Shown here: positions 1,162 through 22,494 of the stretch, piece by piece
Layout of the letters: the number at the start of each line of letters is the position of its first letter
How positions within the stretch are numbered: position 1 is the stretch's first letter
Assembly (NCBI GenBank): GCA_963664835.2
Contig: CAXXUG010000011.1
Location: forward strand, 69,434-133,433
Source of the DNA: Chloroflexota bacterium
Lineage (GTDB): Bacteria > Chloroflexota > UBA6077 > FW602-bin22 > JBCLEL01
Direction of reading: 5' to 3'
DNA length: 64,000 nucleotides
Notes under the pieces: model-generated
Databases searched by the model: none
What the model was told of the DNA's origin: nothing
Seen by the model: only the letters and a program-made list of their open reading frames with translations
Translations under genes and position numbers: made by a program

Positions 1162-2649
1162 ATGGAGGCCAAATTGTTGTCTGATAAGTTTACCCGCCGT
1201 TCGTTTCTTGCCGGCCTGAGCGCCGCTGCGGCGCTGCCTATCCTGGCGGCCTGTGAGCCGCAGGTTGTTGAAAAGGTCGTCGAGAAGCCCGTCGAGGTGG
1301 TGGTCACCCAAGTCGTCGAGAAGGTCGTCGAAAAAGAGGTGGTCGTTCAGGAGGTCGTCGAAGTAGAGAAGGAAGTAGTCGTAGAGGTCGAAAAGGAAGT
1401 AGTCGTAGAGAAGGAAACGATCGTCGAGGTCCCAGCCGCAAAGGATCCGATCACGATTTTCTGGCTAGGCGGCGGGGGCGACACGCCCGCAGCTATGATC
1501 AAAGAATGGCAGGAGATGGGGAACGAGCACATCTCGTTTGAGGTGTTAGATCTTCCAGCATCAGAACTGTACATCAGGATCGAGACTGGATGGACGGCGG
1601 GCGCCGGTCCTGATATCGCCTTTACCGGCGGTGCGACGAAGCGTTACGCGGCCGCTGGCTGGGCCGTCTGGGTCGAGCCGTTCATGCCGAAGGGTGACTA
1701 TCACGACTTCTACAAGGTTGCAAGAGACTGCGTCAGCTGGAACGATAGAATGTACGCTTTCCCCTTCAGCTCGCACGGTCAGCCGTTGATGTTCCGCAAG
1801 GACGTCCTCGAGGAGGCGGGGGTTGACTGGACGCAAGCGCCGGAGACCTACGACGACATTCTTCAAATTGCCAAGAAGGTGCAGAAGAAGTCGGGCGATA
1901 CGTGGGAGATCATCGGCTACTGGATAAACTCGGATCCTGGCAAGGTCCACATGAGCCAGGGCTACGTCTACGGCAACGGCGGAGGCTGGGTCGAGGATGA
2001 TGATTCGGTCCTTATCGATCACCCCGGAACCATTAAAACAGTCCAGATGTTCAGCGATTGGTTGCTTAAGGAAGAACTGGGCCCTGCAGGCGGCCACCAC
2101 GAGGACGTCTGGGGCTCGAACTTCGCCGACGGTAAATTGGCGATTGTTCACACAGCCGTTCAAGTCGTCCGCAAGGTCGTCGAAAAGCTCGGCAACGACG
2201 ACACGGTCGGCGCCTGGCACATTCCCCCGGGCGACGTGAAGCGGTCGGCTTTCTCTTACCACAACAACTTCATGCCGCACTCGCGAAGCAAGGTATGGGA
2301 GGAGGCGACCAAATTCACCCAGTGGATAACCAACACTGACAACATGATCAGATTTAACGAAGTGGGTAGGGCTCCTATGCCCCGCATTTCAGCCACCGAG
2401 AAGGCGGAGTATACGAAGGACCCCCGCTGGCAAATTGCCCTGGAGGCCGCCGGCGTCTACGGCGACAACGAGGGCAAGAGCCGCTTCTCGATTCCGATCC
2501 GCGACCATATAATAGAGCCGGCGATGACGAGGGCATTCTTCGGCCAAATGTCGGCGGAGGAAGCGATGACCGGGGCCGCCAACGAGGCGAGAGATTTGAT
2601 CGAGAACGAGCTCAAAGTCTGGGATCGAGACATAGAGCAGAAACGGTAA
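1162..2649 (+). CDS. ABC transporter extracellular solute-binding protein (family 1, sugar/CUT1-like), TAT-signal lipoprotein
   Basis: Twin-arginine motif FTRRSFLAG and lipobox ILAAC at aa 27-31. A ~64-aa V/E/K low-complexity tether follows, then an SBP_bac_1-like body. An AGAGGAGAGG Shine-Dalgarno lies upstream of the ATG. Confidence 0.88.
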   Translation: MEAKLLSDKFTRRSFLAGLSAAAALPILAACEPQVVEKVVEKPVEVVVTQVVEKVVEKEVVVQEVVEVEKEVVVEVEKEVVVEKETIVEVPAAKDPITIFWLGGGGDTPAAMIKEWQEMGNEHISFEVLDLPASELYIRIETGWTAGAGPDIAFTGGATKRYAAAGWAVWVEPFMPKGDYHDFYKVARDCVSWNDRMYAFPFSSHGQPLMFRKDVLEEAGVDWTQAPETYDDILQIAKKVQKKSGDTWEIIGYWINSDPGKVHMSQGYVYGNGGGWVEDDDSVLIDHPGTIKTVQMFSDWLLKEELGPAGGHHEDVWGSNFADGKLAIVHTAVQVVRKVVEKLGNDDTVGAWHIPPGDVKRSAFSYHNNFMPHSRSKVWEEATKFTQWITNTDNMIRFNEVGRAPMPRISATEKAEYTKDPRWQIALEAAGVYGDNEGKSRFSIPIRDHIIEPAMTRAFFGQMSAEEAMTGAANEARDLIENELKVWDRDIEQKR

Positions 2650-2671
2650 ACGTCGCGGCCCCGGTAGAATA

Positions 2672-2711
2672 GAAGCAGACCCTCTCAGTTCACGCTAAGA
2701 GGGTCTGCTTC
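2672..2711 (+). terminator. Perfect 14-bp stem-loop just downstream of the SBP gene (attenuator or mRNA-stabilising hairpin)
   Basis: GAAGCAGACCCTCT (2672-2685) pairs with AGAGGGTCTGCTTC (2698-2711) around a 12-nt loop. A GGTTTTGGGTTTT tract starts about 12 nt further downstream rather than abutting the stem. Confidence 0.4.
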
Positions 2712-3096
2712 AGATCAAACCGGTTTTGGGTTTTGACGCTTCGCGCTGAAGGTTGGGCCTGGAACAGGCGGCAGGATCGTATTTCCCTCACGTCTCCGCG
2801 CCGGCAAGGTTTCCAAGAGTCACCAGAGGATCGCCTGGGGAGATGCTGACCTCGCTTCGACGAGACTGAGGATCGGGTCAACAAGCGCGACACAGTGGTA
2901 CAGCTCTCGTGTTGGAGCTCGGGCGAGCTTCGCTGGCCCTGAAATCCGGTGGGCGTACCCCCGGGGAAGTGCGTCAACCGCATAGGGATTAGGGATGTCT
3001 TAATCGGACCACCCCTTTTCCTGTCGCAGTCGATTCATGTCTGGACGAACGCCTGGTTCATACATTCCTGGCGGCGCGTCCTTAAGAGGTGTCGGA

Positions 3097-4032
3097 ATGG
3101 CGATATCGGCGGCAGGGTATAGAAGCGCGCTGTCGCAGTGGCGTCGGCGCCACTGGAGTTACCGTCCCGCCGAGGTGCGGGTCGCGCTGTTGTGCTTGTC
3201 CATCACGTTCGTAGGCATTTTCTTCTTCTCGGTGATCCCGGTCCTGGCGTCCATTTACCTGGGCTTTACCGACTTCAATCCCCTGAGAGACTCCCGGCCG
3301 TACTGGACCGGCCTGGACAACTACGTGCGCCTGCTGGACGACAGCCGCTTCATCAAGGCGGTCGGCAATACCCTCTACTACTACGTCTTCGCGGCGCCCC
3401 TTACCCTCGGTCTGGGTTTGATCGCGGCGCTGGCCTTCAACCGCCAGATCCGGGGAATGGCCTTCTTCCGGATCACCTACTACACTCCCACCCTGGCCTC
3501 GATGGTAGCCGTGTCTCTGTTCTGGTTGTGGATATTCAACCCAGACTACGGGCTACTCAATGCCTTCATAGGTGTGTTCGGTTTCAAGCCAGTCCGCTGG
3601 CTCTTGAGCCCTGACTCGGCGATGCCAGCAATAATCATCCTATCGGTGTGGAAGGGCGCCGGGTTTGCGATGATTATCTTCTTGGCCGGCCTGCAGACCA
3701 TCCCCCAGCATCTCTATGAGTCCTCTGAGATTGATGGCGCGAACCGCTTTCAGCGTTTCATCCACGTCACCTGGCCGCTCCTGCGCCCAACCACGGCCTT
3801 TCTGTTCATAACCTTTACTCTGGGAGCGTTCCAGGTCTTCGAGCAGGTCTTCGTGCTTACCAGGGGTGGTCCGGCCGAGGCAACGACGACGATCGTCCAT
3901 CAGATCTACGCCCGGGCTTTCAGTTACCTGATGATGGGTTACGCGTCGTCTCAGGCGACTCTTCTGCTGCTGGCGTTGTTGGTGATAACCATAATCAACA
4001 TGCGCCTGTTGGTGCGCGACATTGAGTACTGA
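3097..4032 (+). CDS. ABC transporter permease (MalF/UgpA-like)
   Basis: Polytopic membrane ORF with EAA-loop-like SSEIDGANRFQRFIHVTWPLLRP. The start is set at ATG 3097 (AGAGG SD). The ORF is open from 3037. Confidence 0.85.
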   Translation: MAISAAGYRSALSQWRRRHWSYRPAEVRVALLCLSITFVGIFFFSVIPVLASIYLGFTDFNPLRDSRPYWTGLDNYVRLLDDSRFIKAVGNTLYYYVFAAPLTLGLGLIAALAFNRQIRGMAFFRITYYTPTLASMVAVSLFWLWIFNPDYGLLNAFIGVFGFKPVRWLLSPDSAMPAIIILSVWKGAGFAMIIFLAGLQTIPQHLYESSEIDGANRFQRFIHVTWPLLRPTTAFLFITFTLGAFQVFEQVFVLTRGGPAEATTTIVHQIYARAFSYLMMGYASSQATLLLLALLVITIINMRLLVRDIEY

Positions 4033-4064
4033 ATCCACGCGAGAGGTGACGAGAGCAGGCTGAT

Positions 4065-5006
4065 ATGGCACGGTCGACAGCACGAACCGAAGCGAGCGGC
4101 TACCTGACAGTACGGCTCCCCTGGTGGCGAAAGGTCAGTGCGGGATTTACCCTAGCCATGACAGCGGCCGTGCTCGGCGCGGCGATCATGATGGTGCCGT
4201 TTGTCTGGGGCGCCCTCACGTCGTTCAAACCCAGTGGTGAATATCTCAGTATCCCGCCAACCTGGCTTCCCGAACAGTGGACGCTCGATGGGTACGAGCT
4301 TGCCCTCTACCGGGGCGGTTTGCTAACCGGCCTCAAGAACTCCTTCATCGTCGCGGGAATCAGCACCGTTCTGATGGTTCTGAGCGCAGTGCTGGCTGGG
4401 TACGCCTTCGCCAGATTGCGTTTCCCCTTCAGCCGGGTGATCTTCCTGATCGTCTTGGCGACGATGATGATTCCCTGGCCGGTGACGCTGCTTCCCTTGT
4501 TCATCATGATGGTGAAGTTCCCGCTGGCCGGCGGCAACGACATCTTCGGCTCGGGCGGCCGAGGGTTAGTGGATACCTACGAGGGCCTAATCCTGCCAAG
4601 TCTGGGTTTCGCGTACGGGACCTACCTCATGCGTGAGTTCTTCAAGGCGCTGCCGGCGGAGTTGGAGGATGCGGCGCGTGTCGATGGGGCCGGGGAGCTG
4701 AGAATTCTGTTTCAGATCATGGTGCCTCTCAGCAAACCAGCGATGGCCGCCCTATCCATCATCGCGTTCCAGAACAACTGGAACAGCTTCATCTGGCCGC
4801 TAGTCATGACTAATAAGCCGAGTATGGCCGTCGTCCAGATCGTACTCCAGCAACTCCAGTTAATCTCGTCACCGGGGGAAAGGTTGTTCGTCCGCTGGGA
4901 TGCGGTGAATGCCGGTGGTATGATTTCGCTGATACCCCTGGCGATCTTCTTCCTATTCTTCCAGCGATACTTCATCAGAGGCATCGCCATGACCGGCTTC
5001 AAGTAG
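4065..5006 (+). CDS. ABC transporter permease (MalG/UgpE-like)
   Basis: Polytopic membrane ORF with EAA loop EDAARVDGAGELRILFQIMVPLSKP. It lies 32 nt after the preceding permease. Confidence 0.85.
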   Translation: MARSTARTEASGYLTVRLPWWRKVSAGFTLAMTAAVLGAAIMMVPFVWGALTSFKPSGEYLSIPPTWLPEQWTLDGYELALYRGGLLTGLKNSFIVAGISTVLMVLSAVLAGYAFARLRFPFSRVIFLIVLATMMIPWPVTLLPLFIMMVKFPLAGGNDIFGSGGRGLVDTYEGLILPSLGFAYGTYLMREFFKALPAELEDAARVDGAGELRILFQIMVPLSKPAMAALSIIAFQNNWNSFIWPLVMTNKPSMAVVQIVLQQLQLISSPGERLFVRWDAVNAGGMISLIPLAIFFLFFQRYFIRGIAMTGFK

Positions 5007-5051
5007 GAATCCTCGGTCTGTTCAATAGGACTTGCGCGGAGAGAGCAAGAT

Positions 5052-5270
5052 ATGGTCTTTGGACGGTTCGCCAGCACACATAAAGAGATGCGGCGACAGT
5101 GCGGCCATGCCTTTGCGAGCCTCTCGCTTCGACGTTTACAGGCGTTCGGCGCCTGGTCGCCGGAGACACCTGGCGGTTTGACTCTCAGGTCTGCAGGTTG
5201 GAATCGGCGCTGGAATTCGTCACCGGATTTTCGAAGTTGCCAACCGGAATTCGATGGCGTCTGAAATAGC
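5052..5270 (+). pseudogene. Remnant of a third C45 (acyltransferase-like Ntn hydrolase) paralog: N-terminal ~65 codons, frameshifted and truncated
   Basis: MVFGRFASTHKEMRRQCGHAFASL...AWSPETP aligns with the N-termini of the two intact C45 genes (MLFGRFSGTHFEMGRQHGQAFASL / MRFERFSGSHLSMGIQRGKAF...SWSPEAQ). A second frame continues the homology (DSQVCRLESALE versus DLLFTKFESALS). The remnant ends where the halogenase-like gene begins. Confidence 0.55.
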
Positions 5271-7134: not shown

Positions 7135-7320
7135 TTCGTCCTATCGTCAGGTCCAATGCGGCAGGCTTGATCGTGATGCTAACGGTCGACGGTTTCGGTT
7201 GGCCGGCAGCTCACGTTGGCCTCAGTGCGTTCGAGGCTTGCCCCTAGATTTCAGACGAGCGCAATCGATAGAGGCGACGGTGGAATTCGATGTTACTATG
7301 CGATCAAGGAGGGGGAACAG

Positions 7321-8373
7321 ATGCTTTTCGGAAGGTTTTCGGGAACCCATTTCGAAATGGGACGACAACACGGCCAGGCCTTTGCTAGCCTGTTGAGCCA
7401 GAACCGGGATGCGTTGCACACGGTCTCGCCGGAGGTTCGTCAACAGCAGGACTTGCTTTTCACCAAGTTTGAATCGGCATTGAGTAGGACCGCTCCGGAG
7501 CTGATCGAGGAGATGCGGGGCATAGCCGAGGGAGCCGCACTTTCTTACGAGGACGTGGTACGGCTGAACTTTGCTGAGGAAGTAGGCGGAGGCAACCTCG
7601 GATGCTCCCAATTTGGCATAGTCGCGGCCGACGGCAGCGCGGTCATGGGTAAGAATGAGGACCACGGATTCGGTCTCCGCACATACGTTGTAACCGAGCT
7701 GCATCCTGACAACGGGTATGCCCAGGTGCACGTTGGCGCCGTGAACTGGGTAGTTAGCTCCGGAAGTGGGATCAACGAAGCGGGACTGTGTGTTGGCCAA
7801 TCCTCGCTTAACGTCACAAGTGAAGCCGATGGCGTGCCCCGGTTGACGATGCTGCGACTAGTCTTGGAGCGCTGCGAGACAGTATCGGAGGCCGGGGAGC
7901 TTCTCAGGACGAAGACCGGTGGGATACGAGGGTTGAACTTTTTGATGGTGGACGCGAACGGAGATATGGCCGTGGTAGAGAGTGCTCCGTCACTGTGCGC
8001 CGTGCGCCAGACCGAGGATTGCGCAATCTGGGCATCGAACCATCCTGTCGATCCCAAGATGCGGGCGGTGGAGAGGATAATCGTAGGTACCGAGACGGAC
8101 CTAGAGCGAACGCTTGCAATGGATGCGAATTCACGGCAACGTTTTGGCAGACTTAGCGCTCTCGCGCGTGATCACGCTGACCCGCCGGGGCACGATGAGG
8201 CCCGCCGGTCGGTGGAGAGCGTGATCCGGTCCCACGGGCCGGGTGGCATGTGTCAGCACGGGCTAATGCAGACTACCTGGTCGGTATTGATGGACGCTCG
8301 CAACCGGGAGCTACTGCTGGCGGATGGGTATCCTTGCACGACAGCCTGGGAACGCTTCAGCCTCGCAAACTGA
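7321..8373 (+). CDS. Peptidase C45 family (acyl-CoA:6-APA acyltransferase-like) Ntn hydrolase, paralog 1
   Basis: An AGGAGGG SD precedes ATG 7321; the ORF is open from 7216. The putative autoprocessing site and nucleophile is GNLG|CSQFG (Cys codon 7603-7605). It is about 60% identical by eye to the downstream paralog. Confidence 0.78.
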   Translation: MLFGRFSGTHFEMGRQHGQAFASLLSQNRDALHTVSPEVRQQQDLLFTKFESALSRTAPELIEEMRGIAEGAALSYEDVVRLNFAEEVGGGNLGCSQFGIVAADGSAVMGKNEDHGFGLRTYVVTELHPDNGYAQVHVGAVNWVVSSGSGINEAGLCVGQSSLNVTSEADGVPRLTMLRLVLERCETVSEAGELLRTKTGGIRGLNFLMVDANGDMAVVESAPSLCAVRQTEDCAIWASNHPVDPKMRAVERIIVGTETDLERTLAMDANSRQRFGRLSALARDHADPPGHDEARRSVESVIRSHGPGGMCQHGLMQTTWSVLMDARNRELLLADGYPCTTAWERFSLAN

Positions 8374-8641: not shown

Positions 8642-9688
8642 ATGCGTTTCGAACGCTTTTCGGGTTCGCACCTGAGTATGGGGATTCAGCGCGGCAAGGC
8701 CTTTCGAGACCAGTTACAACAACGCAGCCATACCATCGATTCCTGGTCGCCTGAAGCCCAGGATCGAGTCGACTCTCTAGTCAGAAGGTTCGGGTCATCG
8801 CTGAGCGGTTTCGCTCCGGAACTGATTGAGGAGATGCAAGGCATCGCCCAAGGCGCCGGATTGAGCTACGAGGATGTCGCGCGCCTCAACTTCTCGGAGG
8901 AGATCGGAATACCCATCGGTTGTTCCCAGGTTGGACTCGTCAATCGCGATGGCGACGTGATGATGGGCAAGGCGGAAGACGCCGGATTCTCGCGAACGTA
9001 CGTGGTTACCGAACTCCATCCCGATCAAGGCTTCGCTCAGATTCACGTCGGTGCGATCAACTGGGTAGTCAGCTCCGGCAGTGGGATCAACGAGGCCGGC
9101 CTTTGTATCGGCCAATCCTCCCTTCGCATCTTTGACGAGGCGGAGGGAGTGCCCAGGTTGACGATGCTGCGCTTGGCACTTGAACGCTGCGCCACGGTAT
9201 CTGAGGCCTCAGAGCTTATTGAGACTGCGACCGGCGGCATCAGGGGTATGAACTTTCTGATGGTGGATGCAAAGGGCGAGATGAGGGTCATCGAGCGCTC
9301 CCCTTCGCTGTGCGCAGTCCGTCAGCCGGCGAATGGCGCGATCTGGGCTACCAACCATCCGGTTGATCCTCGAATGCGGGCAGTGGAGCACATAATCACC
9401 GGCGCTGAGCCGGATTTCGAGCGCGATCTTGCCTACGAGGCCAACTCGCGACAGAGGTTCGGCCGGCTTGATCATTTGACCCGCGACGAGGTGGATGGGC
9501 TCGGAGTGAAGGAATCACTGCAGAAGGTGATGACCTCACACGGGCCCGGTGGTGCCTGTCAGCACGGCGTTATGGAGACTACCTGGACGGTCATGATGGC
9601 CCCGCGCAGTCGCGAGTTGTGGCTGTCGGACGGACCGCCCTGTCGCAATCCGTTTGAGCTCTACTCTTTCAGCGGAAGACAACGGTAG
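8642..9688 (+). CDS. Peptidase C45 family Ntn hydrolase, paralog 2
   Basis: GGAGG SD. Nucleophile context IPIG|CSQVG (Cys codon 8921-8923). The stop TAG (9686-9688) abuts the ATG of the first GH2-like gene. Confidence 0.78.
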   Translation: MRFERFSGSHLSMGIQRGKAFRDQLQQRSHTIDSWSPEAQDRVDSLVRRFGSSLSGFAPELIEEMQGIAQGAGLSYEDVARLNFSEEIGIPIGCSQVGLVNRDGDVMMGKAEDAGFSRTYVVTELHPDQGFAQIHVGAINWVVSSGSGINEAGLCIGQSSLRIFDEAEGVPRLTMLRLALERCATVSEASELIETATGGIRGMNFLMVDAKGEMRVIERSPSLCAVRQPANGAIWATNHPVDPRMRAVEHIITGAEPDFERDLAYEANSRQRFGRLDHLTRDEVDGLGVKESLQKVMTSHGPGGACQHGVMETTWTVMMAPRSRELWLSDGPPCRNPFELYSFSGRQR

Positions 9689-12157: not shown

Positions 12158-12197
12158 AGGGTCGCTCAATGCGGAAGTTATTGGGGGAAGACAGACG

Positions 12198-14663
12198 ATG
12201 ACTGCTCCGGACGACTTGCTATGGTCACGTTCGTTCGAGCTGGTCTACTACAACCCTGCATCCAAGTTTCGCGGACGCACCCACTTTCGTGACCCCGAGA
12301 ACGATCCGCTAACCACCGAACAGCGAATTGCCTACCTGGATGCCTACGCCGACCTGCTGCGGCGAGAGAACGATCTGGGCGACGACTGGCTCTCCTCCGA
12401 GGTGGTCAGCGAAGAGGAAGGGCGTCAGCTGGCCTCGCAGATCAAGGCAAGGCCGCTGCCCCACAACAGGGAGATAGTTCCGCTTCGCTTCTGGCGGTGG
12501 AAGCTGCAAGGCGCCGAGGAGGACGAGTGGGCGGCGTCCGACTTCGACGACAGCCTCTGGAACGAGCTAGAAGTGCCGACGGTCCTGGATATGGGAAGAG
12601 CGATGCTTCTAAGATGCACAGCCCATATCAGAGCGTCGGAACGAGTGGTGCTGGACATCGAATCGATCCACGACGAGTACGAGCTGTGGGTAAATGGCGA
12701 GTCGGTCGCTCACCACGAAGGCTACGAGCCGCACCAGGTCGACATCACCTACGTAATCCGGCCAGGACAGGAGAATACGATTGCAATCAAGGTTGCCGAG
12801 AAGGAAGGCTACCAGATCGGCATCGCGGGCTGCATCCAGGTGGTGGGCACTCGCTCAGTCTACATAGAGGACCTGTTCGTGAAGCCGGTCGAGGCGATGG
12901 AAGGTCGGCCGGCACGAGTTCAGATTATCGTGACGGTAAGAAATGTCGGAGATCAGGCCTTCTCCGGGCAGTTGGAGGCCAGGTTCAACCGGTGGTTCCC
13001 GGAGGAAGACGGGGCAGTGGCCTACGAGATGGGGGCGATGGAGGTAGAGGTAGGGCCAGGCGAGGCTGTGGAGCTATGCGAAGAGTGCGTCTGGACGGGA
13101 GCGGAGCTGTGGTGGCCGGAGCGACCACGGTTGTACAGGGTGGAGGCGGTACTGAGATCGGAAGGTAGCGAGCAAATCGACGATTACGTAGACACGGTGG
13201 GGATCCGCACCATACAGCAACGTGGAGGCAGGTTGTACCTGAACGGCCGGCGGTTTGTGTGGCGCAGCTTCGGCGACAACCTCGGATTTGCGCCGGGTGC
13301 TGACTCCCACAGCGCTACCTGCCCTCCCGACGCCTGGATCGTAAGGGACTTCCTGCTGGCCAAGCGGGCCAACGCTAACGGCGTGCGTGTCCATCCCTGG
13401 GGTTACGGGGAGAGACCCGGAGAACGCAACGAATATGGATTCCCTGAGTTCAGCGTGCACTCGGATGGTACCAACTACGTTCGGATCGCCGAAATCGCCG
13501 ACCAGATAGGTCTTTGCCTGATCTGGGTGACACGTCACTGGACGCTAGGGGCCTCGGAATTTCGAAGTCACTATCGCGAGGAAGACCTTGAAAGGTTGTT
13601 AGTACCGTCGATCAAGCGGGTGCGGAATCATCCGAGCATCATCTCCTATGAAGGTATGAATGGCGTCGGGGTGAACGTTTTGCGCCGAGCTTTGTGGGTG
13701 CTATTCAGTGACGATCCGCAGCCCTGGCTGGGTCACCTGAATCCGCAGGAAGTAGAGTCTTTAACTCGGCTGCAAGAACGTCGATACATAGAGTATTGTG
13801 CGAGATACATACGGCTGGTCGACTCGGTGGATGATTCACGCCTAGTCTGTCCGGATTCGCATTGGGGGCCCGCTTATCAGGGTAAGACGAGCTGGAATGC
13901 GGTCCAACACAAGAACGAGTCTGTATTCACACTGACTGAGAACGTGTACTGGGACCTCCATGAGGCCCCGGGATGGTACGGTGACTTTGCAGACATGTAC
14001 GCGCATAAGGACCGACTCTTGCCGGATGATCGGACCCGAGCGGTGATTTGGAGCGAGTTCTCGGCCGAGGCGATGCCCGATTGGCAGCGCTACCGTGGGC
14101 TGCCTTGGCGAAACATGTGGATCAACCACGATAGACCTACTGCCGGCATCGAGAAGGCGCGGCTGGGCCGGCATCTGCGGAGACTGCGCGATCCGGAGGT
14201 CCATATATCGCAGGCCTACCAGGGCCTATTCTTCCAACAAGTCGCTAGCTTCATACGCGCGAGAGCGGCCGAGGGGATGAACTGCCAGTTGCTCACCGAC
14301 GGGCTTTCCCAGGGAATGTACCACAAGGGGGTATGCGACCTCTACCGACGCGCCAAGCTGGGATACTTCGCAGCACGTATGACCTACCAACCCACGTTGG
14401 TGACCGGGATGGACGGCGATTTTGTCCTCTCAGAGGATGATGCCCTGCGTCTGGTCCTGATCAACGATGCGGTCGAGCGCGCAGGTCAGCCAGTGAAGGT
14501 GAGGATTCAGGTCAAGCGCCCAGATGGCGGCCGGGTGGATACCAAGGATCTCAATGCTACCATCGATGCGTCGGGCGTCACGCCGGTAGGAAACTATCGG
14601 CCACAGTTTCCGGCCGCTGGCCTGTATCAGATTGAGTACGTGGTAACGCCGGTCGAGAACTAA
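12198..14663 (+). CDS. GH2-like protein, tandem copy 2 (acid/base Glu replaced by Gly)
   Basis: Same architecture as copy 1. The aligned motif reads ISYEGMNGVG (GGC at 13662-13664, the same codon index 489 as in copy 1). The nucleophile context IWSEFSAEAM is retained. Confidence 0.8.
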   Translation: MTAPDDLLWSRSFELVYYNPASKFRGRTHFRDPENDPLTTEQRIAYLDAYADLLRRENDLGDDWLSSEVVSEEEGRQLASQIKARPLPHNREIVPLRFWRWKLQGAEEDEWAASDFDDSLWNELEVPTVLDMGRAMLLRCTAHIRASERVVLDIESIHDEYELWVNGESVAHHEGYEPHQVDITYVIRPGQENTIAIKVAEKEGYQIGIAGCIQVVGTRSVYIEDLFVKPVEAMEGRPARVQIIVTVRNVGDQAFSGQLEARFNRWFPEEDGAVAYEMGAMEVEVGPGEAVELCEECVWTGAELWWPERPRLYRVEAVLRSEGSEQIDDYVDTVGIRTIQQRGGRLYLNGRRFVWRSFGDNLGFAPGADSHSATCPPDAWIVRDFLLAKRANANGVRVHPWGYGERPGERNEYGFPEFSVHSDGTNYVRIAEIADQIGLCLIWVTRHWTLGASEFRSHYREEDLERLLVPSIKRVRNHPSIISYEGMNGVGVNVLRRALWVLFSDDPQPWLGHLNPQEVESLTRLQERRYIEYCARYIRLVDSVDDSRLVCPDSHWGPAYQGKTSWNAVQHKNESVFTLTENVYWDLHEAPGWYGDFADMYAHKDRLLPDDRTRAVIWSEFSAEAMPDWQRYRGLPWRNMWINHDRPTAGIEKARLGRHLRRLRDPEVHISQAYQGLFFQQVASFIRARAAEGMNCQLLTDGLSQGMYHKGVCDLYRRAKLGYFAARMTYQPTLVTGMDGDFVLSEDDALRLVLINDAVERAGQPVKVRIQVKRPDGGRVDTKDLNATIDASGVTPVGNYRPQFPAAGLYQIEYVVTPVEN

Positions 14664-14704
14664 CGAGGGCGCTCAATGCGGAAGTTATTAGGAGAAGACA
14701 GACG

Positions 14705-17188
14705 ATGACTGCTCCGGACGACTTGCTGTGGTCGCGTTCGTTCGAATTGGTCTATTACGATCCTTCAACTAAGTTTCGCGGGCGCACGCACTTCCGTGAC
14801 CCCGAGAACGATCCGCTAACCACCGAACGGCGAATAGCCTACCTAGATGCCTACGCCAATCTGCTGCGGCGAGAGAACAATCTGGGCGACGACTGGCTCT
14901 CATCCGAGGTGGTCGGCGAAGACGAGGCTGAGCAGCTGGCCTCGCAGATCAAGGACAGGCCGCTGCCACGCCAGCGGCAAATCGTCCAGCTTCGCTTCTG
15001 GCGGTGGAAGCTGCAAGGCGCCGAGGAGGACGAGTGGGCGGCGACCGACTTCGACGACAGCCTCTGGAATGAACTGGAAACGCCGACAGTACTGGATATG
15101 GGAAGGGCGATGCTTCTGCGGAGCCGGGAGCACATTGAAACCTCGGAACGAGTGGTGCTCGACATCGAGTCGATCCACGACGAGTACGACCTATGGGTAA
15201 ATGGCGAGTCAGTAGTTCACCACAAAGGGTATGAGCCGCACTCGGTCGACATCACATCGTTCATACGGGCGGGGCAGGAGAATACGTTTGCAATCCGCGT
15301 CGCCAAGAAGCCCGGCTATCAGATTGGAATCGCCGGGCGCATCCAAGTGGTGGGCACTCGCTCGGTCTACATAGAGGATGTGTTTGTGAAGCCGGTCGAG
15401 GCGATGGAAGGTCGGCCGGCCCGAGTTCAGATCATCACGATCGTACGGAATGCCGGCGGTCAGGCTTTCAGTGGTCGACTGGCGGCCCGTTTCTACCGGT
15501 GGTTCCCGGAGGAAGATGGGGCGGTCGCCTATGAGGCGCCATCGATGGAGGTAGAGGTTGGGCCGGGCCAGGCGGTGGAACTGAGCCAGGACTGTGTCTG
15601 GGCGGGAGCGGAGCTGTGGTGGCCGGAGCGGCCCCACTTGTACAAGGTGGAAGCGGTCGTGAACTCAGAACATGGGGAGCAACTCGACGACTATGTAGAC
15701 ACTGTGGGTATCCGAACTATACAGCAACGAGGGGGCAGGATTTACCTGAATGGCAAGCGCTTCGTATTGCGCAGTTTCGGCGATAACCTGGGATTTGCGC
15801 CGAGCGCCGACTCTCATAGCTCGGTGTGTCCGCCTGATGGCTGGATTGTCAGGGACTTCCTGCTGGCCAAGCGGGCAAACGCAAACGGCGTGCGGATTCA
15901 TCCTTGGGGTTACGGTGAAAGACCTGGAGAGTACAACGAACTCGGATTCCCGGAGTGGGGCGATCACACAGACGGCACCAGCTACGTTCGGATTGCCGAG
16001 ATCGCGGACCAGATCGGCCTCTGCCTGATCTGGGTGACTCGACTATGGACGCTGGGAGCCTCGGAATTTCGCAAACATTACGACGAACAAGAGATGGAGC
16101 GATTGCTGCCGCCGTGCATCAAACAGGTGCGGAATCATCCAAGCATAATCTCCCACGAGGGGCTCAACGGAGTTGGGGCGACTATGACGAGCGGAGCCCT
16201 CGGAGTGCTGATGGGAAGTGCCGAGGAGACTTGGTTGAGGAATCTGTCTCCACAGGAAGTCAAGACGCTGAACCATCTTCACGAGCGTCGGTACGAGGAA
16301 TTCTGTGCCAAGTTCATCCAATTGGTCAACTCGGCTGACGGCTCACGGTTGGTCTGTCCAGACTCACATTGGAGCCCAGGGTATCAGGGAGAAGCCCATC
16401 AGGTCACGACGTTTGCGTTATGGGACACGGATGTGGAGGACGAGTCAGCGTTTACCCTGACAGAGAACCTCTACTGGGCCCTCCACGAGTACCCTGGCTG
16501 GTACAGGGATTTCCAGGAAATGTATGCCAGGAAAGACCGTATCATTCCGCACGATAGAGCGCGACCGGTGATATGGACTGAGTTTGCCGCCGAGGCTATG
16601 CCCGATTGGGAGCGCTACCGAGGACTTCCCTGGCGAAATATGTGGATAAACCACGACAGTCCTACGGCTGCGATTGAAAGGGCAAGGCTTGGGCGGCCGT
16701 TGCGGGCCCTGCGCGACTCCGAGGCCCACCTCTCGCAAGCTTACCAGGGCCTGTTCTTCCAGCAGGTAAGCACATTTGGCCGGGTGGTCGGCTGCGATGG
16801 GATGAACTTTCAGCTCATAACCGATGGCTTGTCGCAGGGTATGTATCACAAAGGGGTGTGCGACCTCTACCGGCGCGCCAAGTTGGGATACTTTGCCGCA
16901 CGCATGGCCTATCAACCCACGTTGGTGACCGGGATGGATGGAGACTTTGTCTTCTCAGAGGATGACGCCCTACATCTAGTCCTGGTTAATGATGCGGTGA
17001 AGCGTATAGGGGAACGCGTGAAGGTGCAGGTTAGGGTCAAGCATCCGGAGGGCGGCCTGGTGGATTCTACCGAATTAGATGCTTCCCTCGATGGATCGGG
17101 TATTGTCGAATTGGGAGATTATAGACCGCGTTTCCCGACCGCTGGTCTTTATCAAATCGAGTATACAGTCCTGCCAGGCCAGGGTTGA
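14705..17188 (+). CDS. GH2-like protein, tandem copy 3 (acid/base Glu replaced by Gly)
   Basis: The aligned motif reads ISHEGLNGVG (GGA at 16169-16171, codon 489). The nucleophile context IWTEFAAEAM is retained. Confidence 0.8.
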   Translation: MTAPDDLLWSRSFELVYYDPSTKFRGRTHFRDPENDPLTTERRIAYLDAYANLLRRENNLGDDWLSSEVVGEDEAEQLASQIKDRPLPRQRQIVQLRFWRWKLQGAEEDEWAATDFDDSLWNELETPTVLDMGRAMLLRSREHIETSERVVLDIESIHDEYDLWVNGESVVHHKGYEPHSVDITSFIRAGQENTFAIRVAKKPGYQIGIAGRIQVVGTRSVYIEDVFVKPVEAMEGRPARVQIITIVRNAGGQAFSGRLAARFYRWFPEEDGAVAYEAPSMEVEVGPGQAVELSQDCVWAGAELWWPERPHLYKVEAVVNSEHGEQLDDYVDTVGIRTIQQRGGRIYLNGKRFVLRSFGDNLGFAPSADSHSSVCPPDGWIVRDFLLAKRANANGVRIHPWGYGERPGEYNELGFPEWGDHTDGTSYVRIAEIADQIGLCLIWVTRLWTLGASEFRKHYDEQEMERLLPPCIKQVRNHPSIISHEGLNGVGATMTSGALGVLMGSAEETWLRNLSPQEVKTLNHLHERRYEEFCAKFIQLVNSADGSRLVCPDSHWSPGYQGEAHQVTTFALWDTDVEDESAFTLTENLYWALHEYPGWYRDFQEMYARKDRIIPHDRARPVIWTEFAAEAMPDWERYRGLPWRNMWINHDSPTAAIERARLGRPLRALRDSEAHLSQAYQGLFFQQVSTFGRVVGCDGMNFQLITDGLSQGMYHKGVCDLYRRAKLGYFAARMAYQPTLVTGMDGDFVFSEDDALHLVLVNDAVKRIGERVKVQVRVKHPEGGLVDSTELDASLDGSGIVELGDYRPRFPTAGLYQIEYTVLPGQG

Positions 17189-17232
17189 TGGCCGGGCGCC
17201 GCGACACGAAATCTGCTAACGGAGGATATTCG

Positions 17233-19698
17233 ATGACGATGCAGGAGAATTCGCTTTGGTCTCGCTCTTTCGAGTTGGTCTATTACGATCCTTCACCTGA
17301 TTTCCAGGGCCGCACACACTTCCGAGACCCCGAGAACGACGCCCTGACCACCGAGCAGCGAATTGCTTACGTCGAGGCATACACTGATCTGCTGCGCCGG
17401 GAAAACGACCTTGGGGAGCGCTACCTGTCGACTGAGGTGGTGAGCGATGAGGAGTCAGAGCAGCTCGCCTCTCAGATCAAGAACAGGCCGATGTCGAATC
17501 AGCGCAATACCGTCCCCCTCTGCTTCTGGCGCTGGAAGCTGCAGGGCGCCGAGAACGACGAGTGGGTTGCGCCCGACTTCGATGACAGCGTCTGGAACGA
17601 GCTGGAAGTTCCTACCGTCCTCGATATGGGCAGAGCCATGCTTCTGAGATCCAAAGCTCATATCGAACCTTCAGAACGAGTTGTGCTAGATATCGAATCT
17701 ATCCACGACGAGTACGAACTTTGGGTCAATGGCCAGTCAGTAGTTCACCACAAAGGGTATGAGCCGCACTCCGTCGACATCACATCGGTCATACGGGCGG
17801 GCCAGGAGAATACGTTTGCAATCAAGGTTGCCGAGAAGAAAGGCTACCAGATCGGCATCGCCGGCTCGATCCAGTTGGTGGGCACCCGTTCGGCCTACAT
17901 AGACGATGTGTTTGTGAAGCCGGTCGAGGCGATGGAAGATCGGCCGGCCCGAGTGCAGATCATCACGACCGTTCGGAATGCCGGCGGTCAGGCTTTCACT
18001 GGTCGACTGGCGGCCCGTTTCTACCGGTGGTTCCCGGAGGAAGATGCGGCAGTCGCCTATGAGGCGCCGTCAATGGAGGTGGAGGTTGGGCCAGGCCAAT
18101 CGGCGGAGCTAAACCAGGAATGCAACTGGTCCGGTGCGGAGCTGTGGTGGCCGGAGAGCCCTCGCATCTACAGGCTGGAGGCCACGCTGAGCTCAGATGA
18201 TGACGAGCGCATGGACGACTATGCGGATACTGTTGGCATTCGTACTATAGAGCAGCGTGGAGGCCGGTTCTACCTGAACGGCCGGCGATTCGTGATGCGC
18301 GGTTTCTGCGACAACCTCGGATTTGCGCCGGCTCCAGACTCCCACGGCGCGACCTGCCCACCAGACGCCTGGATCGCCAGGGACCTCATCCTGGCGAAGC
18401 GTGCCAACGCCAACACCGTTCGAATACACCCCTGGGGTTTCAGCGGTCAGCCGGGGCAATACGACGACCGGGGCTGGCCAGTCTGGGGCTTGCCTACCGA
18501 TGGCACCAACTACGGCCGCGTAGCCGAGATTGCTGATCAGATTGGTATCTGTCTCGTCTGGGTAACGCGCCATTGGACGCTGTGGGCCGATGGGTTCCGC
18601 GAACACTACAATAGCGACGAGATGGAAACGCTTCTGGCGCCTTCACTGAAGCAGGTGCGAAATCATCCCAGCATCATTTCCTACGAGGGGCTGAATGAGG
18701 TGGGAGTGGGCCTGGGACCACGCGTAATCTTGGGTCGGGAAGGTGCCGAGCCGGAGTGGACTAGCCATTTGCTGCCGGATGAAGTTGAGACGCTGACCGA
18801 ATTCCATGTGCGTCTTTACAGAGATTTCTGTGCCAGTTACATCCGGTTGGTCAACTCGGTTGACGATTCGCGAGTAGTCTGCCCAGACTCCCAATGGGGG
18901 CCTGGTTACCAAGACTTTGCCGAGAGGTCGGACGCGGTCCAATTCGATGACGAGTCCGTGTTTACCATGGCGGAGAACGTCTATTGGGACTTCCACCATT
19001 ACCCTGGCTGGTACACGGACATCAAGGATATGTATGCGCGGAAAGAGCGTTTTTGGCCGGATGACCGGGCCCGAGCGGTCATTTGTGGCGAATATTCGGC
19101 AGAGGCTATGCCCGACTGGAATCGCTACCGAGGGCTGCCCTGGCGAAACACCTGGCTGAACAATGGACGCCCCACCGGTGAAATCGAGCAGGCGCGCCTG
19201 GGTCGGCCGCTGCGCGTGCTGCGGGACTCGGAGGCGCATCTGTCACAGGCCTATCACGGGCTTTGTATCTATCATTCCGCCGTCTACTTGCGCGCCACTG
19301 GTTGCGACGGCATGATCAGCCCCATCTTGGCCGACGGGTTATCCGAGGGCCAGTACCACAAGGGTTTTTTGGACCTGCATCGCCGCGCTAAGTTGGGATA
19401 CTTTGCTGTGACTATGACTTATCAGCCCACCCTAGTAACCGGAATGGACGGCGACTTTGTCTTCTCCCGGGACGACTCTTTGCACCTAGTCCTGGTGAAT
19501 GATGCGCCGCAGCGAGTTAGCAGGCCGGCAACGGTGCTGGTGCAGGCCAAGAAGTTGGACGGTTCGGTTGTAGACTCCAGGGAGGTGAGGGTAACTATCG
19601 ATGATTCAGGCATCATGCCCCTTGGAGAGTTTCAGCCGCAGTTTCCAAGCTCAGGGTTGTACCAAATCGAATACACAGTTGTGGCCGATCCGGATTGA
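17233..19698 (+). CDS. GH2-like glycoside hydrolase, tandem copy 4 (both catalytic Glu present)
   Basis: The start is set at ATG 17233 (GGAGG SD; MTMQENSLWSRSF aligns with the other copies). The ORF is open from 17185. The acid/base motif is ISYEGLNEVG (GAG 18697-18699). ICGEYSAEAM closely resembles LacZ ILCEYAHAMGN. Confidence 0.8.
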   Translation: MTMQENSLWSRSFELVYYDPSPDFQGRTHFRDPENDALTTEQRIAYVEAYTDLLRRENDLGERYLSTEVVSDEESEQLASQIKNRPMSNQRNTVPLCFWRWKLQGAENDEWVAPDFDDSVWNELEVPTVLDMGRAMLLRSKAHIEPSERVVLDIESIHDEYELWVNGQSVVHHKGYEPHSVDITSVIRAGQENTFAIKVAEKKGYQIGIAGSIQLVGTRSAYIDDVFVKPVEAMEDRPARVQIITTVRNAGGQAFTGRLAARFYRWFPEEDAAVAYEAPSMEVEVGPGQSAELNQECNWSGAELWWPESPRIYRLEATLSSDDDERMDDYADTVGIRTIEQRGGRFYLNGRRFVMRGFCDNLGFAPAPDSHGATCPPDAWIARDLILAKRANANTVRIHPWGFSGQPGQYDDRGWPVWGLPTDGTNYGRVAEIADQIGICLVWVTRHWTLWADGFREHYNSDEMETLLAPSLKQVRNHPSIISYEGLNEVGVGLGPRVILGREGAEPEWTSHLLPDEVETLTEFHVRLYRDFCASYIRLVNSVDDSRVVCPDSQWGPGYQDFAERSDAVQFDDESVFTMAENVYWDFHHYPGWYTDIKDMYARKERFWPDDRARAVICGEYSAEAMPDWNRYRGLPWRNTWLNNGRPTGEIEQARLGRPLRVLRDSEAHLSQAYHGLCIYHSAVYLRATGCDGMISPILADGLSEGQYHKGFLDLHRRAKLGYFAVTMTYQPTLVTGMDGDFVFSRDDSLHLVLVNDAPQRVSRPATVLVQAKKLDGSVVDSREVRVTIDDSGIMPLGEFQPQFPSSGLYQIEYTVVADPD

Positions 19699-19727
19699 GC
19701 CGATCCAAATGTAGATGACCTCTCTCG

Positions 19728-21998
19728 TTGGGAAGGAAAAGGCACTTGGCCGAGGACGAGCGGACCAGCGATAATCGTCGGACAGCCGATCACGGTGACC
19801 GGCTCAGCCGTCTCGATGACACTCAGCGAGTGCGCGAACTGGTCCTTGCCGTTGCCTTTCTCGGTCTGCTAGTGGTCCAAAGTGCCCACCAGGCCGAGTA
19901 CGTCATCCGTTTATTGCAGCGCGACGTATTCAACAACCCAACCGCAAACGGACTGCTTGGTCAGTTCTTGGATCTCGAACCCCTTGATCTGGCCTACAAC
20001 CTCGCTTGCTTCTTGCTACTGCTTTTGGTGTACAGGTCAAGTAATGCTCATAATCCTGGGCGATGGACCCGCGGAATGCCAGCCTGGTGGTTGCTCACCT
20101 TGGCGCTCGCGATCGGGGGTTACCACCTTGTTGATCACCTCTTTAAGATCTGGCAATTCATCGACACCCGACGCGAAGGAATGCCCGGCATTCTAGGCGA
20201 CTCCTTGAACCTGACCTGGCTAGACTTCGCACTCAACACAACATCCTATTTGGCGGTTGTGGCGGCCTTTTGGCTGGGTGGCTACTACCGGCATCTGAAG
20301 GCTGACCTGGCAGCACTATGGGCTGAGATTGCCGGCAGCACATCTGTCGGGCGGACTGCTCACGGGTTGCCGACCCTTTCCCGCCGGGGGCTTTTCATAG
20401 GAGCGGTTGGCATTGCGGCGGCGCTAGGGGCGGCCCGAGTCGGCATTCGCGCCTGGCGCCCTCCGATCGAAATGCCAACTTTCGCTGATGCAACCCGGTC
20501 GGCTGGGATCGATTTCAGGCACCGTGAGCACTTTCTCCCGGAGCCAATTCAGGCTGGCGCCGCCTTCTTCGACTATGACGGTGACGGACGTCCTGACATC
20601 TTCCTGACCAACGGCAGCGGACCTAACGCCCTCTATCGCAACAACGGTGATGGCACGTTCGATGACGTAACCGCCAAAGCTGGCCTTGTCGATCCTGATG
20701 AAGTCGCAATCGGTGTAGCCTGCGCAGATTACAACAACAATGGTAACTGCGATCTACTCGTAACTACACTGGAAGGACCTAAGCTCTTCCGCAACAACGG
20801 CGATGGTACATTCACCGATGTCACCAAACCGGCTCGTCTCCATGGGTATCACGGACACCCGACTTCAGTGGCCTGGACCGATTTCGACGGCGACGGCTAT
20901 TTGGATCTCTACGTCGCATATTGGTTCAACTTGTTTCCAAAGCCGATCCACGATCCATCGCTGGCGGCTTTCAGGGATAGTAAGAGACCCGAGCATCGCT
21001 CCCATGTTTTGTTCAGGAACAATGGCGATGGCACTTTCACGGATGTGTCAGAGTACCTTGACCCGCGGCCCAGGCACGGTACTGGCCTTGCCGTCGGATT
21101 CTTCGACTATGATGACGATGGCCGCCCAGATCTATACGTCGTGAATGACTTCGGCCAATATAGGGGGCCTAACACCCTCTATCACAACTCTGGTCCTGTG
21201 GGAGGCGGTTGGGCGTTCACTGACGTCTCTAGGCAGGCCGGCGCTCGTGCTGAAATGGACGGAATGGGTTTGGCGGTCGGGGACTACGATGGAGATGGCC
21301 GGCTGGACATGTACATTACGAACAGGGGCAGCAACTTGCTATATCGCAACCGTGGTGACGGAACTTTCGAGGAATCGACAGGTAGTGCAGGGGTTGGCCG
21401 TGGAGAGGTTGGCGGTGAATACTCAGTCGGTTGGGGCAACGCCTTTTTGGACTTCGACAATGATGGCTTGCTCGACCTCTACTTCGTCGCGGGCAACATC
21501 TATCCTAAAACGAATGTCAACGGAGATTATGGTCCTGACCAGCCAAACGCGCTATTCCACAATCGAGGCGCCGGCAAGTTCCGCGATGTGTCAGCTATCA
21601 CCGGCACTGACCACACTGGAGTAGCCAGGGGATTGGCGGTGGCTGACTATGACGGCGACGGATTCCTGGACCTGCTGGTGGCCAACATCGATCAACCACC
21701 AGTATTGTTGCGAAACTCTGGCAATGATAACCATTGGCTAGCGGTTCAGCTAGTTGGCAAGCGCAGCAACCGTGATGGTGTCGGCGCCCGGCTAGCGTTA
21801 ACCGCCGGCGGACGGCGGCAGGTCCGGGAGATCCATAGCGGCACCAGCTTTCTGTCTCAGCATAGCCTGGTGGCTCACTTTGGCCTCGGTCGACTCGATC
21901 GTGCTGACGAGCTACAGATTCGCTGGCCCAGTGGCGTTGTACAAACGCTTACGAACCTGGTGGTCGATCGCGAGATTACAGTAACAGAAGCAGTCTGA
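19728..21998 (+). CDS. CRTAC1 / ASPIC-UnbV family protein (FG-GAP/VCBS-like repeats) with an N-terminal polytopic membrane region
   Basis: Repeated FRNNGDGTFTDV / DYDGDG motifs. The C-terminal RDGVGARLALTAGGRRQVREIHSGTSFLSQHSLVAHFGLG matches the ASPIC/UnbV domain. The first ~210 aa hold 4-5 hydrophobic segments. An internal TAT-like SRRGLFIGAVGIAAALGAA lies at aa ~218. The true start is uncertain (TTG at 19728). Confidence 0.78.
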   Translation: MGRKRHLAEDERTSDNRRTADHGDRLSRLDDTQRVRELVLAVAFLGLLVVQSAHQAEYVIRLLQRDVFNNPTANGLLGQFLDLEPLDLAYNLACFLLLLLVYRSSNAHNPGRWTRGMPAWWLLTLALAIGGYHLVDHLFKIWQFIDTRREGMPGILGDSLNLTWLDFALNTTSYLAVVAAFWLGGYYRHLKADLAALWAEIAGSTSVGRTAHGLPTLSRRGLFIGAVGIAAALGAARVGIRAWRPPIEMPTFADATRSAGIDFRHREHFLPEPIQAGAAFFDYDGDGRPDIFLTNGSGPNALYRNNGDGTFDDVTAKAGLVDPDEVAIGVACADYNNNGNCDLLVTTLEGPKLFRNNGDGTFTDVTKPARLHGYHGHPTSVAWTDFDGDGYLDLYVAYWFNLFPKPIHDPSLAAFRDSKRPEHRSHVLFRNNGDGTFTDVSEYLDPRPRHGTGLAVGFFDYDDDGRPDLYVVNDFGQYRGPNTLYHNSGPVGGGWAFTDVSRQAGARAEMDGMGLAVGDYDGDGRLDMYITNRGSNLLYRNRGDGTFEESTGSAGVGRGEVGGEYSVGWGNAFLDFDNDGLLDLYFVAGNIYPKTNVNGDYGPDQPNALFHNRGAGKFRDVSAITGTDHTGVARGLAVADYDGDGFLDLLVANIDQPPVLLRNSGNDNHWLAVQLVGKRSNRDGVGARLALTAGGRRQVREIHSGTSFLSQHSLVAHFGLGRLDRADELQIRWPSGVVQTLTNLVVDREITVTEAV

Positions 21999-22410: not shown

Positions 22411-22494
22411 ATCATAGCCGCAGATCCATTGCGAGACTACGAAGGCGCGTGGCAACACTGACCGCATCGAACGGAGGTAGGAGGTAGCAAGACG

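Follow-up and report, generated by a model that had tools for sequence, protein, structure and literature searches.

A putative composite catabolic locus with paired C45 hydrolase and GH2-like glycosidase genes, and a halogenase probably inserted later, in a Chloroflexota genome

Introduction

Gram-positive-type carbohydrate loci combine an ATP-binding cassette (ABC) importer of the CUT1 type with cytoplasmic glycoside hydrolases and an MsiK-type ATPase. A 21-kb block of co-directional genes (positions 1162 to 21998) in a 64,000-nt stretch of Chloroflexota DNA (contig CAXXUG010000011.1, positions 69,434 to 133,433; hereafter the window) resembles these loci, because genes for a lipoprotein solute-binding protein (SBP) and two MalF/MalG-type permeases precede those of glycosidases without signal peptides, and no ATPase is encoded locally. 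The block differs from them in lacking a LacI, GntR or ROK regulator and downstream sugar-catabolic genes, and in carrying four copies of a rare clade related to glycoside hydrolase family 2 (GH2), C45 N-terminal nucleophile (Ntn) hydrolases as their partners, a CRTAC1-like propeller, a seemingly inserted halogenase and a distant SBP.

The individual proteins also have described counterparts. The multi-domain fold of GH2 enzymes in CAZy (B. uniformis BuGUS-2, 5uj6/6d50; BtMan2A, 2je8) is shared by the four GH2-like proteins (GH2a to GH2d), and the NHPS...NE acid/base motif aligns with that of a glucuronidase; however, the identity is 14-18%, Glyco_hydro_2_C is not matched, an N-terminal domain of ~110 amino acids (aa) is their own, and the acid/base residue was naturally lost in GH2b, GH2c and a solo paralogue. 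The two C45 proteins (C45a and C45b) score above the cutoff of the family of isopenicillin N/acyl-CoA:6-APA acyltransferase (PDB 2x1c-2x1e; NF040521), and their Gly-Cys site aligns with it, but the similarity to the fungal enzyme is remote (E ~1e-5) and the genomic partner is a glycosidase instead of beta-lactam genes. The halogenase conserves the GxGxxG, catalytic Lys and WxWxIP of variant-B flavin-dependent halogenases (CndH, 3e1t; CmlS, 3i3l), and its C-terminal domain has the RRE-like topology of RRE-dependent enzymes for peptides made on ribosomes and modified after translation (RiPPs), e.g. TbiB1. Unlike in these proteins, halogenase and RRE-like domain form one polypeptide, with a SEC-C zinc motif after the latter, and no precursor peptide gene is found nearby.

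In outline, the block is a Gram-positive-type sugar utilization locus, and each protein comes from a known superfamily. The new features are the C45-GH2 partnership, the divergent GH2-like clade, its fourfold amplification with copies lacking the acid/base residue, and the fused halogenase-RRE-SEC-C architecture. Literature searches returned no description of this gene set, of the four new features, or of an RRE-fused halogenase from Chloroflexota. An earlier note on this DNA had suggested that all genes form one pathway, for the breakdown or tailoring of a glycoside that is peptide- or acyl-linked and may be halogenated. The present analysis points, with fair confidence, to a composite catabolic locus instead of a single pathway, in which the import and breakdown of a sugar conjugate are combined with a halogenase inserted later.

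Results

Recurrence of the C45-GH2 gene pair

Both enzyme families that would define the catabolic part of the block are very rare. GH2a has ~17 close relatives (at least 37% identity) among 5.8e9 proteins, and GH2-like relatives were found in 3 of 185,579 species-representative genomes. A profile search of 1.84e9 cluster representatives gave ~10 full-length clusters and a sister clade of ~100 clusters with 900-1040 aa, which is devoid of the N-terminal ~110 aa. Likewise, 11 relatives of C45b were found, and its subfamily comprises ~11 detectable members.

The C45-GH2 pair was detected at five further loci. At L006, a 44% identical GH2-like gene overlaps with its end a 42% identical C45 gene, and the neighbors are sugar-acid and glycosidase genes. 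At L015, a C45 gene (76%) is followed by a frameshifted GH2 gene (72%), with an FG-GAP/UnbV_ASPIC gene (1069 aa) 4 kb downstream. At L016, from a Latescibacteria metagenome-assembled genome (MAG), the order is epimerase, PhyH, C45 (59%), GH116, two small genes and GH2 (71%). The remaining two, L002 and L012, represent a second locus of the same Chloroflexota genomes, where decayed N- and C-terminal C45 fragments stand directly upstream of a solo GH2 gene (70%). Since both families are rare and their pairing recurs, chance adjacency is unlikely. The linkage of the gene set in related genomes, which the earlier note had named as a check, was thus found in part: C45 and GH2 genes are linked, with or without a CRTAC-like gene, whereas the halogenase and this ABC system are scattered.

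Distant GH2-like homologues (30-45% identity) have no C45 partner. Their neighbors are CUT1 SBPs and permeases or MFS transporters, LacI/GntR regulators and PfkB kinases, together with KduI/IolB, AP_endonuc_2, GFO_IDH_MocA, GD_AH, GH38 and URO-D-like genes, which fits a glycosidase of imported sugars that is cytoplasmic, or in some homologues secreted. The URO-D-family genes (uroporphyrinogen decarboxylase/MtaA-like; Table 1) were observed on three unrelated contigs, and this association may point to sugar chemistry such as demethylation or decarboxylation. A uronate or inositol-glycoside substrate was considered and not adopted, because none of the neighbors that had suggested it (KduI/IolB, AP_endonuc_2, GFO_IDH_MocA, GD_AH, PfkB and URO-D-like genes) is present in the block and the evidence is too indirect.

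The halogenase and the C45 remnant

The halogenase gene encodes, as judged from its sequence, a bona fide flavin-dependent halogenase. The matches in PDB started with 8zop (E 9e-84) and extended to 1e-48, CndH and CmlS being close, and the hallmark residues G19-G24 (GxGxxG), K80 and W236/W238/P241 of WxWxIP were invariant in 17 homologues (alignment A2). The NCBIfam CmlS score was 278 bits, below the equivalog cutoff of 900. The ratio of nonsynonymous to synonymous substitution rates (dN/dS) was 0.29 against the closest genome (L011; OZ244845.1, a Chloroflexota MAG chromosome), indicating purifying selection.

The assignment of the earlier note as an RRE (RiPP recognition element, a PqqD-like wHTH) received only moderate support. 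The AlphaFold2 (AF2) model of aa 471-626 (pLDDT 84.6) showed the order strand-strand-strand(-strand)-helix-helix-helix, and the best fold match in PDB was the lasso-peptide RRE TbiB1 with leader (5v1u_B; E 0.011, TM-score 0.68 on the target); on the other side, Pfam PaaA-like_N was sub-threshold (E 0.048) and PqqD was not matched. Halogenases with an RRE-like domain (565-640 aa) form a family of more than 4000 matches, with several paralogues per genome and varied neighbors (L008-L010, L097), and ~20 of the listed matches have a SEC-C tail. The family is apparently centered on Chloroflexota, with few named matches.

A C45 remnant lies directly upstream of the halogenase gene. It was detected by tblastn of C45a aa 26-73 (49% identity over 49 aa, E 1e-10), begins ~12 nt past the perm2 stop and is also found in L011. 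The ATG equivalent to the C45a start is at 5052, 45 nt past this stop, a position expected of a C45 gene behind the importer, which argues that C45 once followed the permease. The open reading frame (ORF) of 70 aa at 5052-5264 matches C45a by blastp (54% over 39 aa, E 7e-9; nucleotide identity 70% over 71 nt). Its first 39 residues come from a C45 N-terminus, and it shares 11 nt with the start of the halogenase gene. The ORF is intact in L011, but four nonsynonymous and two synonymous changes between the two genomes give no sign of constraint, and it is probably a pseudogene scar.

The contexts of halogenase homologues elsewhere are unrelated to the block. A 69% identical paralogue adjoins 2-oxoacid dehydrogenase, glyoxalase and Rce1-like genes, and its homology to the window's halogenase stops at the ends of the coding sequence. 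A 54% homologue (L097) has a pterin dehydratase gene on one side and on the other a different CUT1 system, the SBP of which is dissimilar to that of the block. A metagenome scan with the halogenase alignment yielded distant relatives only and served as a negative control for synteny: none of the 80 loci with such homologues (31-42% identity) has a C45, GH2-like or CRTAC-like gene or a similar SBP gene. Neither the window's halogenase nor P0064 was found by exact look-up. No carrier protein or flavin reductase gene was found near the halogenase, and the sole small ORF adjacent to it is the C45-derived one; none was called next to its homologues in L008 or L097.

Given the remnant and the unrelated contexts, a secondary insertion into a C45 copy or beside one is the best explanation for the halogenase gene, whose product is then probably not part of the sugar module. 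As a class, flavin-dependent halogenases serve in biosynthesis, and an RRE-like domain points to a peptide rather than a sugar substrate. The likeliest target of the halogenase is a peptide or protein outside the sugar pathway.

The GH2-like proteins

The four GH2 paralogues, of ~820 aa each, are 68-81% identical to one another. They matched Pfam Glyco_hydro_2 with 38-42 bits (cutoff 23) and Glyco_hydro_2_N with 25-30 bits, around the cutoff of 28, and gave no match to Glyco_hydro_2_C. With the AF2 model of GH2a (pLDDT 79, pTM 0.87), the top 50 Foldseek matches were all GH2 (E 1e-34 to 1e-27 over ~800 columns), Bacteroides beta-glucuronidases coming first, followed by beta-mannosidases (E ~1e-34 to 1e-30). 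The GH2 architecture of jelly-roll, Ig-like and (beta/alpha)8 barrel domains is predicted from this model, and a family-specific N-terminal domain precedes it.

In an alignment of PDB sequences, the GH2a motif NHPSIISYEGLNE was aligned with the acid/base NE of glucuronidase, and it is located where predicted strand 481-487 ends. The acid/base Glu is present in GH2a (E489) and GH2d (LNEVG); the same position reads NG in GH2b and GH2c and NS in the solo paralogue. These states are identical in four assemblies (NG of GH2b also in L011, L001 and L005). E621 and E625 are both invariant, and E621 is the candidate nucleophile, at the end of predicted strand 617-622, in a region without significant alignment to solved GH2 structures. 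The C-terminal half of the GH2a barrel alone gave chance matches only against PDB, and YHKG (709-712) was aligned with NNKG of 6ncw (carboxylate-binding N-x-K motif) only in the second HMMER domain, which was not significant (i-Evalue 470). This reduces the glucuronidase N-x-K argument to a hint.

The dN/dS of the GH2 genes was 0.17-0.24 between orthologues and 0.15-0.20 between paralogues. The values of GH2b (0.17) and GH2c (0.23) against L011 indicate that the copies without the acid/base residue are maintained and not decaying. Between GH2a and GH2b, the synonymous divergence (dS) was 0.2-0.4 in the N- and C-terminal beta-domains (aa 1-400 and 701-830) and saturated in the catalytic core (aa 401-700), and the most divergent stretch among the paralogues is located just after the acid/base. 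This pattern suggests that the flanking domains were homogenized by gene conversion while old, distinct catalytic cores were kept, which argues for different specificities or roles of the paralogues.

The C45 hydrolases

C45a and C45b are 63% identical. NF040521 (C45_proenzyme) matched them with 188.6 and 181.1 bits (cutoff 85) and Pfam AAT with 75.6 and 68.6 bits (cutoff 23.2). Both carry the Gly-Cys-Ser-Gln (GCSQ) autoprocessing site, with C94 as the nucleophilic Cys, invariant in 12 sequences (alignment A4), and self-cleavage at Gly-Cys is predicted. For both C45 and all four GH2 genes together, the dN/dS was 0.17-0.30 between orthologues and 0.11-0.20 between paralogues, indicating purifying selection.

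The importer and the propeller

The SBP and the two permeases have the make-up of a CUT1 importer. The SBP starts with a twin-arginine translocation (TAT)-like signal with RRxFLAG...C and its lipobox Cys, followed by a linker of ~65 aa rich in V, E and K (aa 33-95, 1258-1446), which is presumably a long tether from the membrane. A 24-nt tandem repeat at 1354-1417 encodes part of this linker. After 5ci5, the PDB neighbors of the SBP were sugar SBPs, and the kinship to characterized SBPs is only distant. The best NCBIfam matches of the permeases were UgpA/UgpE, MalF/MalG and GlcT/GlcU, all below the equivalog cutoffs. In agreement with the earlier note, no ABC ATPase gene is present: neither ABC_tran nor an LSGGQ signature was found in any real ORF of the window, which would fit a shared MsiK-type ATPase with its gene elsewhere.

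The CRTAC1-like protein matched FG-GAP_3 in six stretches (193 bits), UnbV_ASPIC (73 bits) and human CRTAC1 (9etn; E 4e-28). Its N-terminal ~250 aa comprise transmembrane segments and an RRGLF motif. The gene stands 3' of GH2d in L001, L005 and L011 as well.

Gene organization and boundaries of the block

The gene content of the window was established from the ORF map with Pfam and NCBIfam scans (Table 1). These confirmed the gene set and domains that the earlier note had listed for the block: one SBP, two permeases, one halogenase, two C45, four GH2-like and one CRTAC1-like gene, all on the + strand. Two features absent from that list are the C45 remnant in the gap behind perm2 and the PhyH-family gene at the 5' flank. 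Its statement that only the SBP and the CRTAC1-like protein are exported or membrane-bound also held, as hydropathy revealed hydrophobic N-termini in these two proteins and no signal peptides in the enzymes.

The start of C45a was set at the ATG homologous to that of C45b (7321; the longest ORF begins at 7216), and GH2d was started at the homologous ATG 17233, as in the L001 gene call (longest ORF from 17185). With this start, the apparent 4-nt overlap of GH2c and GH2d disappears. The C45b stop abuts the GH2a start in the TAGATG at 9686-9691, a zero-nt junction. The gaps of 0-45 nt noted earlier for the GH2/C45 part hold for the C45b-GH2-CRTAC part (~30-45 nt from the GH2 genes on to the CRTAC1-like gene), while C45a and C45b are 268 nt apart. 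The other large gaps are those between SBP and perm1 (387 nt), perm2 and the halogenase (247 nt), and the halogenase and C45a (186 nt from 7321). The Rfam scan of positions 1-26000 gave no match, and a tRNA search found none.

The closest genome, L011, keeps the complete order from the PhyH gene to the CRTAC1-like gene (91-97% aa and 96% nt identity). The near-identical contigs L001 and L005 begin inside GH2a and confirm GH2a-d followed by the CRTAC1-like gene. Contigs nearly identical to the window occur in the ENA samples ERZ25067264 and ERZ25069191. The window and these three represent one lineage and provide no independent evidence that all the parts belong together. On OZ244845.1, the four-copy block and the solo GH2 gene with decayed C45 (L012) are ~23 kb apart in opposite orientation.

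The PhyH gene at the 5' flank may belong to the block, being kept with it in L011 at 93% aa identity. The PhyH-family genes near C45/GH2 in L016 and L002 have no detectable relation to it and are not its orthologues, and PhyH was dropped as a conserved member of the module. A second PhyH paralogue (35324-36277, - strand; 33% identical to the first) adjoins aldo/keto reductase, ADH and molybdopterin oxidoreductase genes. On the 3' side of the CRTAC1-like gene, the sequence (21999-23169 and the transposase gene of an insertion sequence, IS) differs among the window, L001 and L005, marking a variable boundary. The rest of the window carries genes unrelated to the block. Among them, 57504-61983, with a GC content down to 0.49 at 60-62 kb, encodes an N6_N4 DNA methylase (875 aa), an AAA_15/AAA_21 ATPase (424 aa) and a 189-aa ORF, and is likely a restriction-modification or other defence island.

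Table 1. Features of the block and its flanks in the window, and URO-D-family genes at other loci
Feature	Position	Strand	Basis or remark
PhyH-family Fe/2OG dioxygenase gene	22..828	+	Pfam PhyH E 6.6e-16; flanks block
CUT1-type solute-binding lipoprotein (SBP)	1162..2649	+	Pfam SBP_bac_8; PDB 5ci5 E 4e-21
ABC permease 1 (perm1), UgpA/MalF-like	3037..4032	+	Pfam BPD_transp_1; NCBIfam UgpA E 3e-35, below cutoff
ABC permease 2 (perm2), UgpE/MalG-like	4065..5006	+	Pfam BPD_transp_1; NCBIfam UgpE E 1.7e-35, below cutoff
C45 5' end remnant with leader	5019..5165	+	tblastn/blastp vs C45a
Flavin-dependent halogenase, CndH/CmlS type, 626 aa	5254..7134	+	Trp_halogenase E 1.7e-38; FAD_binding_3; SEC-C E 5e-10
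Halogenase subregion, RRE-like domain	~6664-6984	+	
Halogenase subregion, SEC-C zinc-ribbon tail	7063-7119	+	
C45a, C45/AAT Ntn hydrolase/acyltransferase	7321..8373	+	NCBIfam C45_proenzyme 188.6 bits
C45b, C45/AAT Ntn hydrolase/acyltransferase	8642..9688	+	NCBIfam C45_proenzyme 181.1 bits
GH2a, GH2-like glycosidase	9689..12157	+	Pfam Glyco_hydro_2; Foldseek
GH2b, GH2-like	12198..14663	+	Alignment A1
GH2c, GH2-like	14705..17188	+	Alignment A1
GH2d, GH2-like	17233..19698	+	Start from homology
CRTAC1-like FG-GAP/UnbV_ASPIC propeller	19728..21998	+	FG-GAP_3 E 8e-58; UnbV_ASPIC E 1e-20; exact start uncertain
IS transposase	23170..24759	+	Pfam DDE_Tnp_1_6 and DUF772; downstream boundary, outside system
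URO-D-family gene, L003	6043-7095		
URO-D-family gene, L013	5957-7054		
URO-D-family genes, L014	2574-3677 and 9076-10167		

Discussion

The ancestral unit of a composite locus would have consisted of the CUT1 importer, a C45 Ntn-hydrolase, a divergent GH2-like glycosidase and the membrane-anchored CRTAC1-like propeller, as suggested by synteny and the remnant. Tandem amplification in the window's lineage would then have given two C45 and four GH2 copies, the catalytic cores of which may have diverged long ago while the flanking domains became homogenized; the halogenase gene would have arrived afterwards, within or beside a third C45 copy. In the proposed mechanism, the tethered SBP would capture a small glycoconjugate, perhaps one that the surface propeller had bound or released beforehand, and the two permeases would import it with the help of the MsiK-type ATPase. 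The cytoplasmic C45 proteins would process themselves at Gly-Cys, and the new N-terminal Cys would remove an acyl or aminoacyl group attached by an amide or ester bond. The GH2-like enzymes would break the glycosidic bonds. Of these enzymes, GH2a and GH2d would be of the ordinary retaining kind; GH2b and GH2c, devoid of the acid/base, might target bonds that have a good leaving group or be non-catalytic partners. Our best guess for the substrate is an imported glycoside with an amide- or ester-linked group. Of the earlier proposal of glycoconjugate uptake and cytoplasmic processing, the sugar part is supported by the C45-GH2 linkage and the sugar-catabolic clusters of homologues, and the halogenase part is not.

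Several observations weigh against this reading. The acid/base residue is missing from two of the four GH2 copies, and the module has decayed elsewhere, the GH2 gene being frameshifted in L015 and C45 degraded in L002/L012. Against L011, the dN/dS was ~1.1 for perm2 and 0.53 for the SBP; these values are noisy at low dS and may reflect either relaxed constraint or this noise. The full order with the ABC genes and the halogenase was seen only in L011, a near-identical genome. The block contains no regulator and no downstream sugar-catabolic genes, and the promoter/terminator scan gave fewer matches than shuffled sequences, with none in the key gaps, so that operon boundaries were not set. The halogenase homologue of L097 also lies beside a CUT1 importer, though another one. 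In addition, the remnant need not come from a destroyed third copy: the insertion could equally have duplicated the 5' end of C45a.

Alternatively, the genes may have no common function: they would be a chance same-strand run, with partly decaying C45 and GH2 copies, in a genome that abounds in CUT1 transporters and glycosidases. The gaps of 186-387 nt, which split the block into four parts, the perm2 dN/dS of ~1, the missing acid/base of GH2b and GH2c, and the decayed C45 or GH2 genes at L002/L012 and L015 are in line with this explanation. However, the C45-GH2 pairing recurs across phyla in spite of the rarity of both families, C45b and GH2a are joined without a gap, only ~30-45 nt separate the GH2 genes and the CRTAC1-like gene, every enzyme gene has a dN/dS of 0.17-0.30, and the state without acid/base is conserved in four assemblies. 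We consider a chance run unlikely.

Quite unlikely, too, is the earlier proposal that all genes of the block, including the halogenase, constitute one pathway. It draws on the shared orientation, on the whole order kept in L011, on the purifying selection acting on the halogenase and on the CUT1 importer beside its 54% homologue. This conservation, however, is only between near-identical genomes, and the importer of L097 has a dissimilar SBP. The C45 remnant directly upstream of the halogenase indicates a rearrangement at that position, the 69% homologue is in an unrelated context, the 80 distant loci contain no C45, GH2-like, CRTAC-like or similar SBP gene, and the C45-GH2 pair occurs without any halogenase in four other lineages. 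The biosynthetic nature of halogenases and the peptide substrate suggested by the RRE-like domain also argue against it. Accordingly, the halogenated substrate and the tailoring role proposed in the earlier note were not upheld.

It is very improbable that the block, or its halogenase-C45 part, is a RiPP-type cluster in which the RRE-halogenase modifies a precursor, the C45 proteins are leader peptidases or acyltransferases and the GH2-like proteins are non-hydrolytic: the RRE-like domain, the intact halogenase hallmarks, the acyltransferase activity given in the C45 family description and the 70-aa ORF overlapping the halogenase start and intact in L011 would suit it, but this explanation was rejected, because that ORF is an unconstrained C45 N-terminal fragment, the halogenase homologues in L008 and L097 have no small ORF called immediately before them, the transporter is of the importer type with an SBP, and C45-GH2 pairs elsewhere stand among sugar-catabolic genes without a halogenase.

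Within the composite locus, a further proposal, which we hold only as a tentative and rather improbable one, is that C45 and the divergent GH2-like proteins form an undescribed two-enzyme system that dismantles glycosides with an amide- or ester-linked substituent. The copies without acid/base would be specialized for activated leaving groups, e.g. acyl-glycosides, or would be obligate non-catalytic subunits of hetero-oligomers with GH2a and GH2d. In a bolder variant, the RRE-halogenase would have been co-opted, with the C45-derived 70-aa ORF as its peptide substrate.

In summary, the block appears to be a composite catabolic locus rather than one pathway. If the C45-GH2 pairing is functional, it would be a new enzyme partnership for glycoconjugates that consist of a sugar and an amide- or ester-linked group, outside current models of carbohydrate utilization. 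The GH2-like clade is deeply divergent, has an N-terminal domain of its own and includes members that lack the acid/base yet are under selection; it is marked for biochemistry. The halogenase is a caution against treating co-directional blocks as single pathways. The locus offers a natural example of tandem amplification with conserved flanks and anciently diverged cores, of module decay at paralogous loci, and of an unrelated biosynthetic-type gene landing in an operon.

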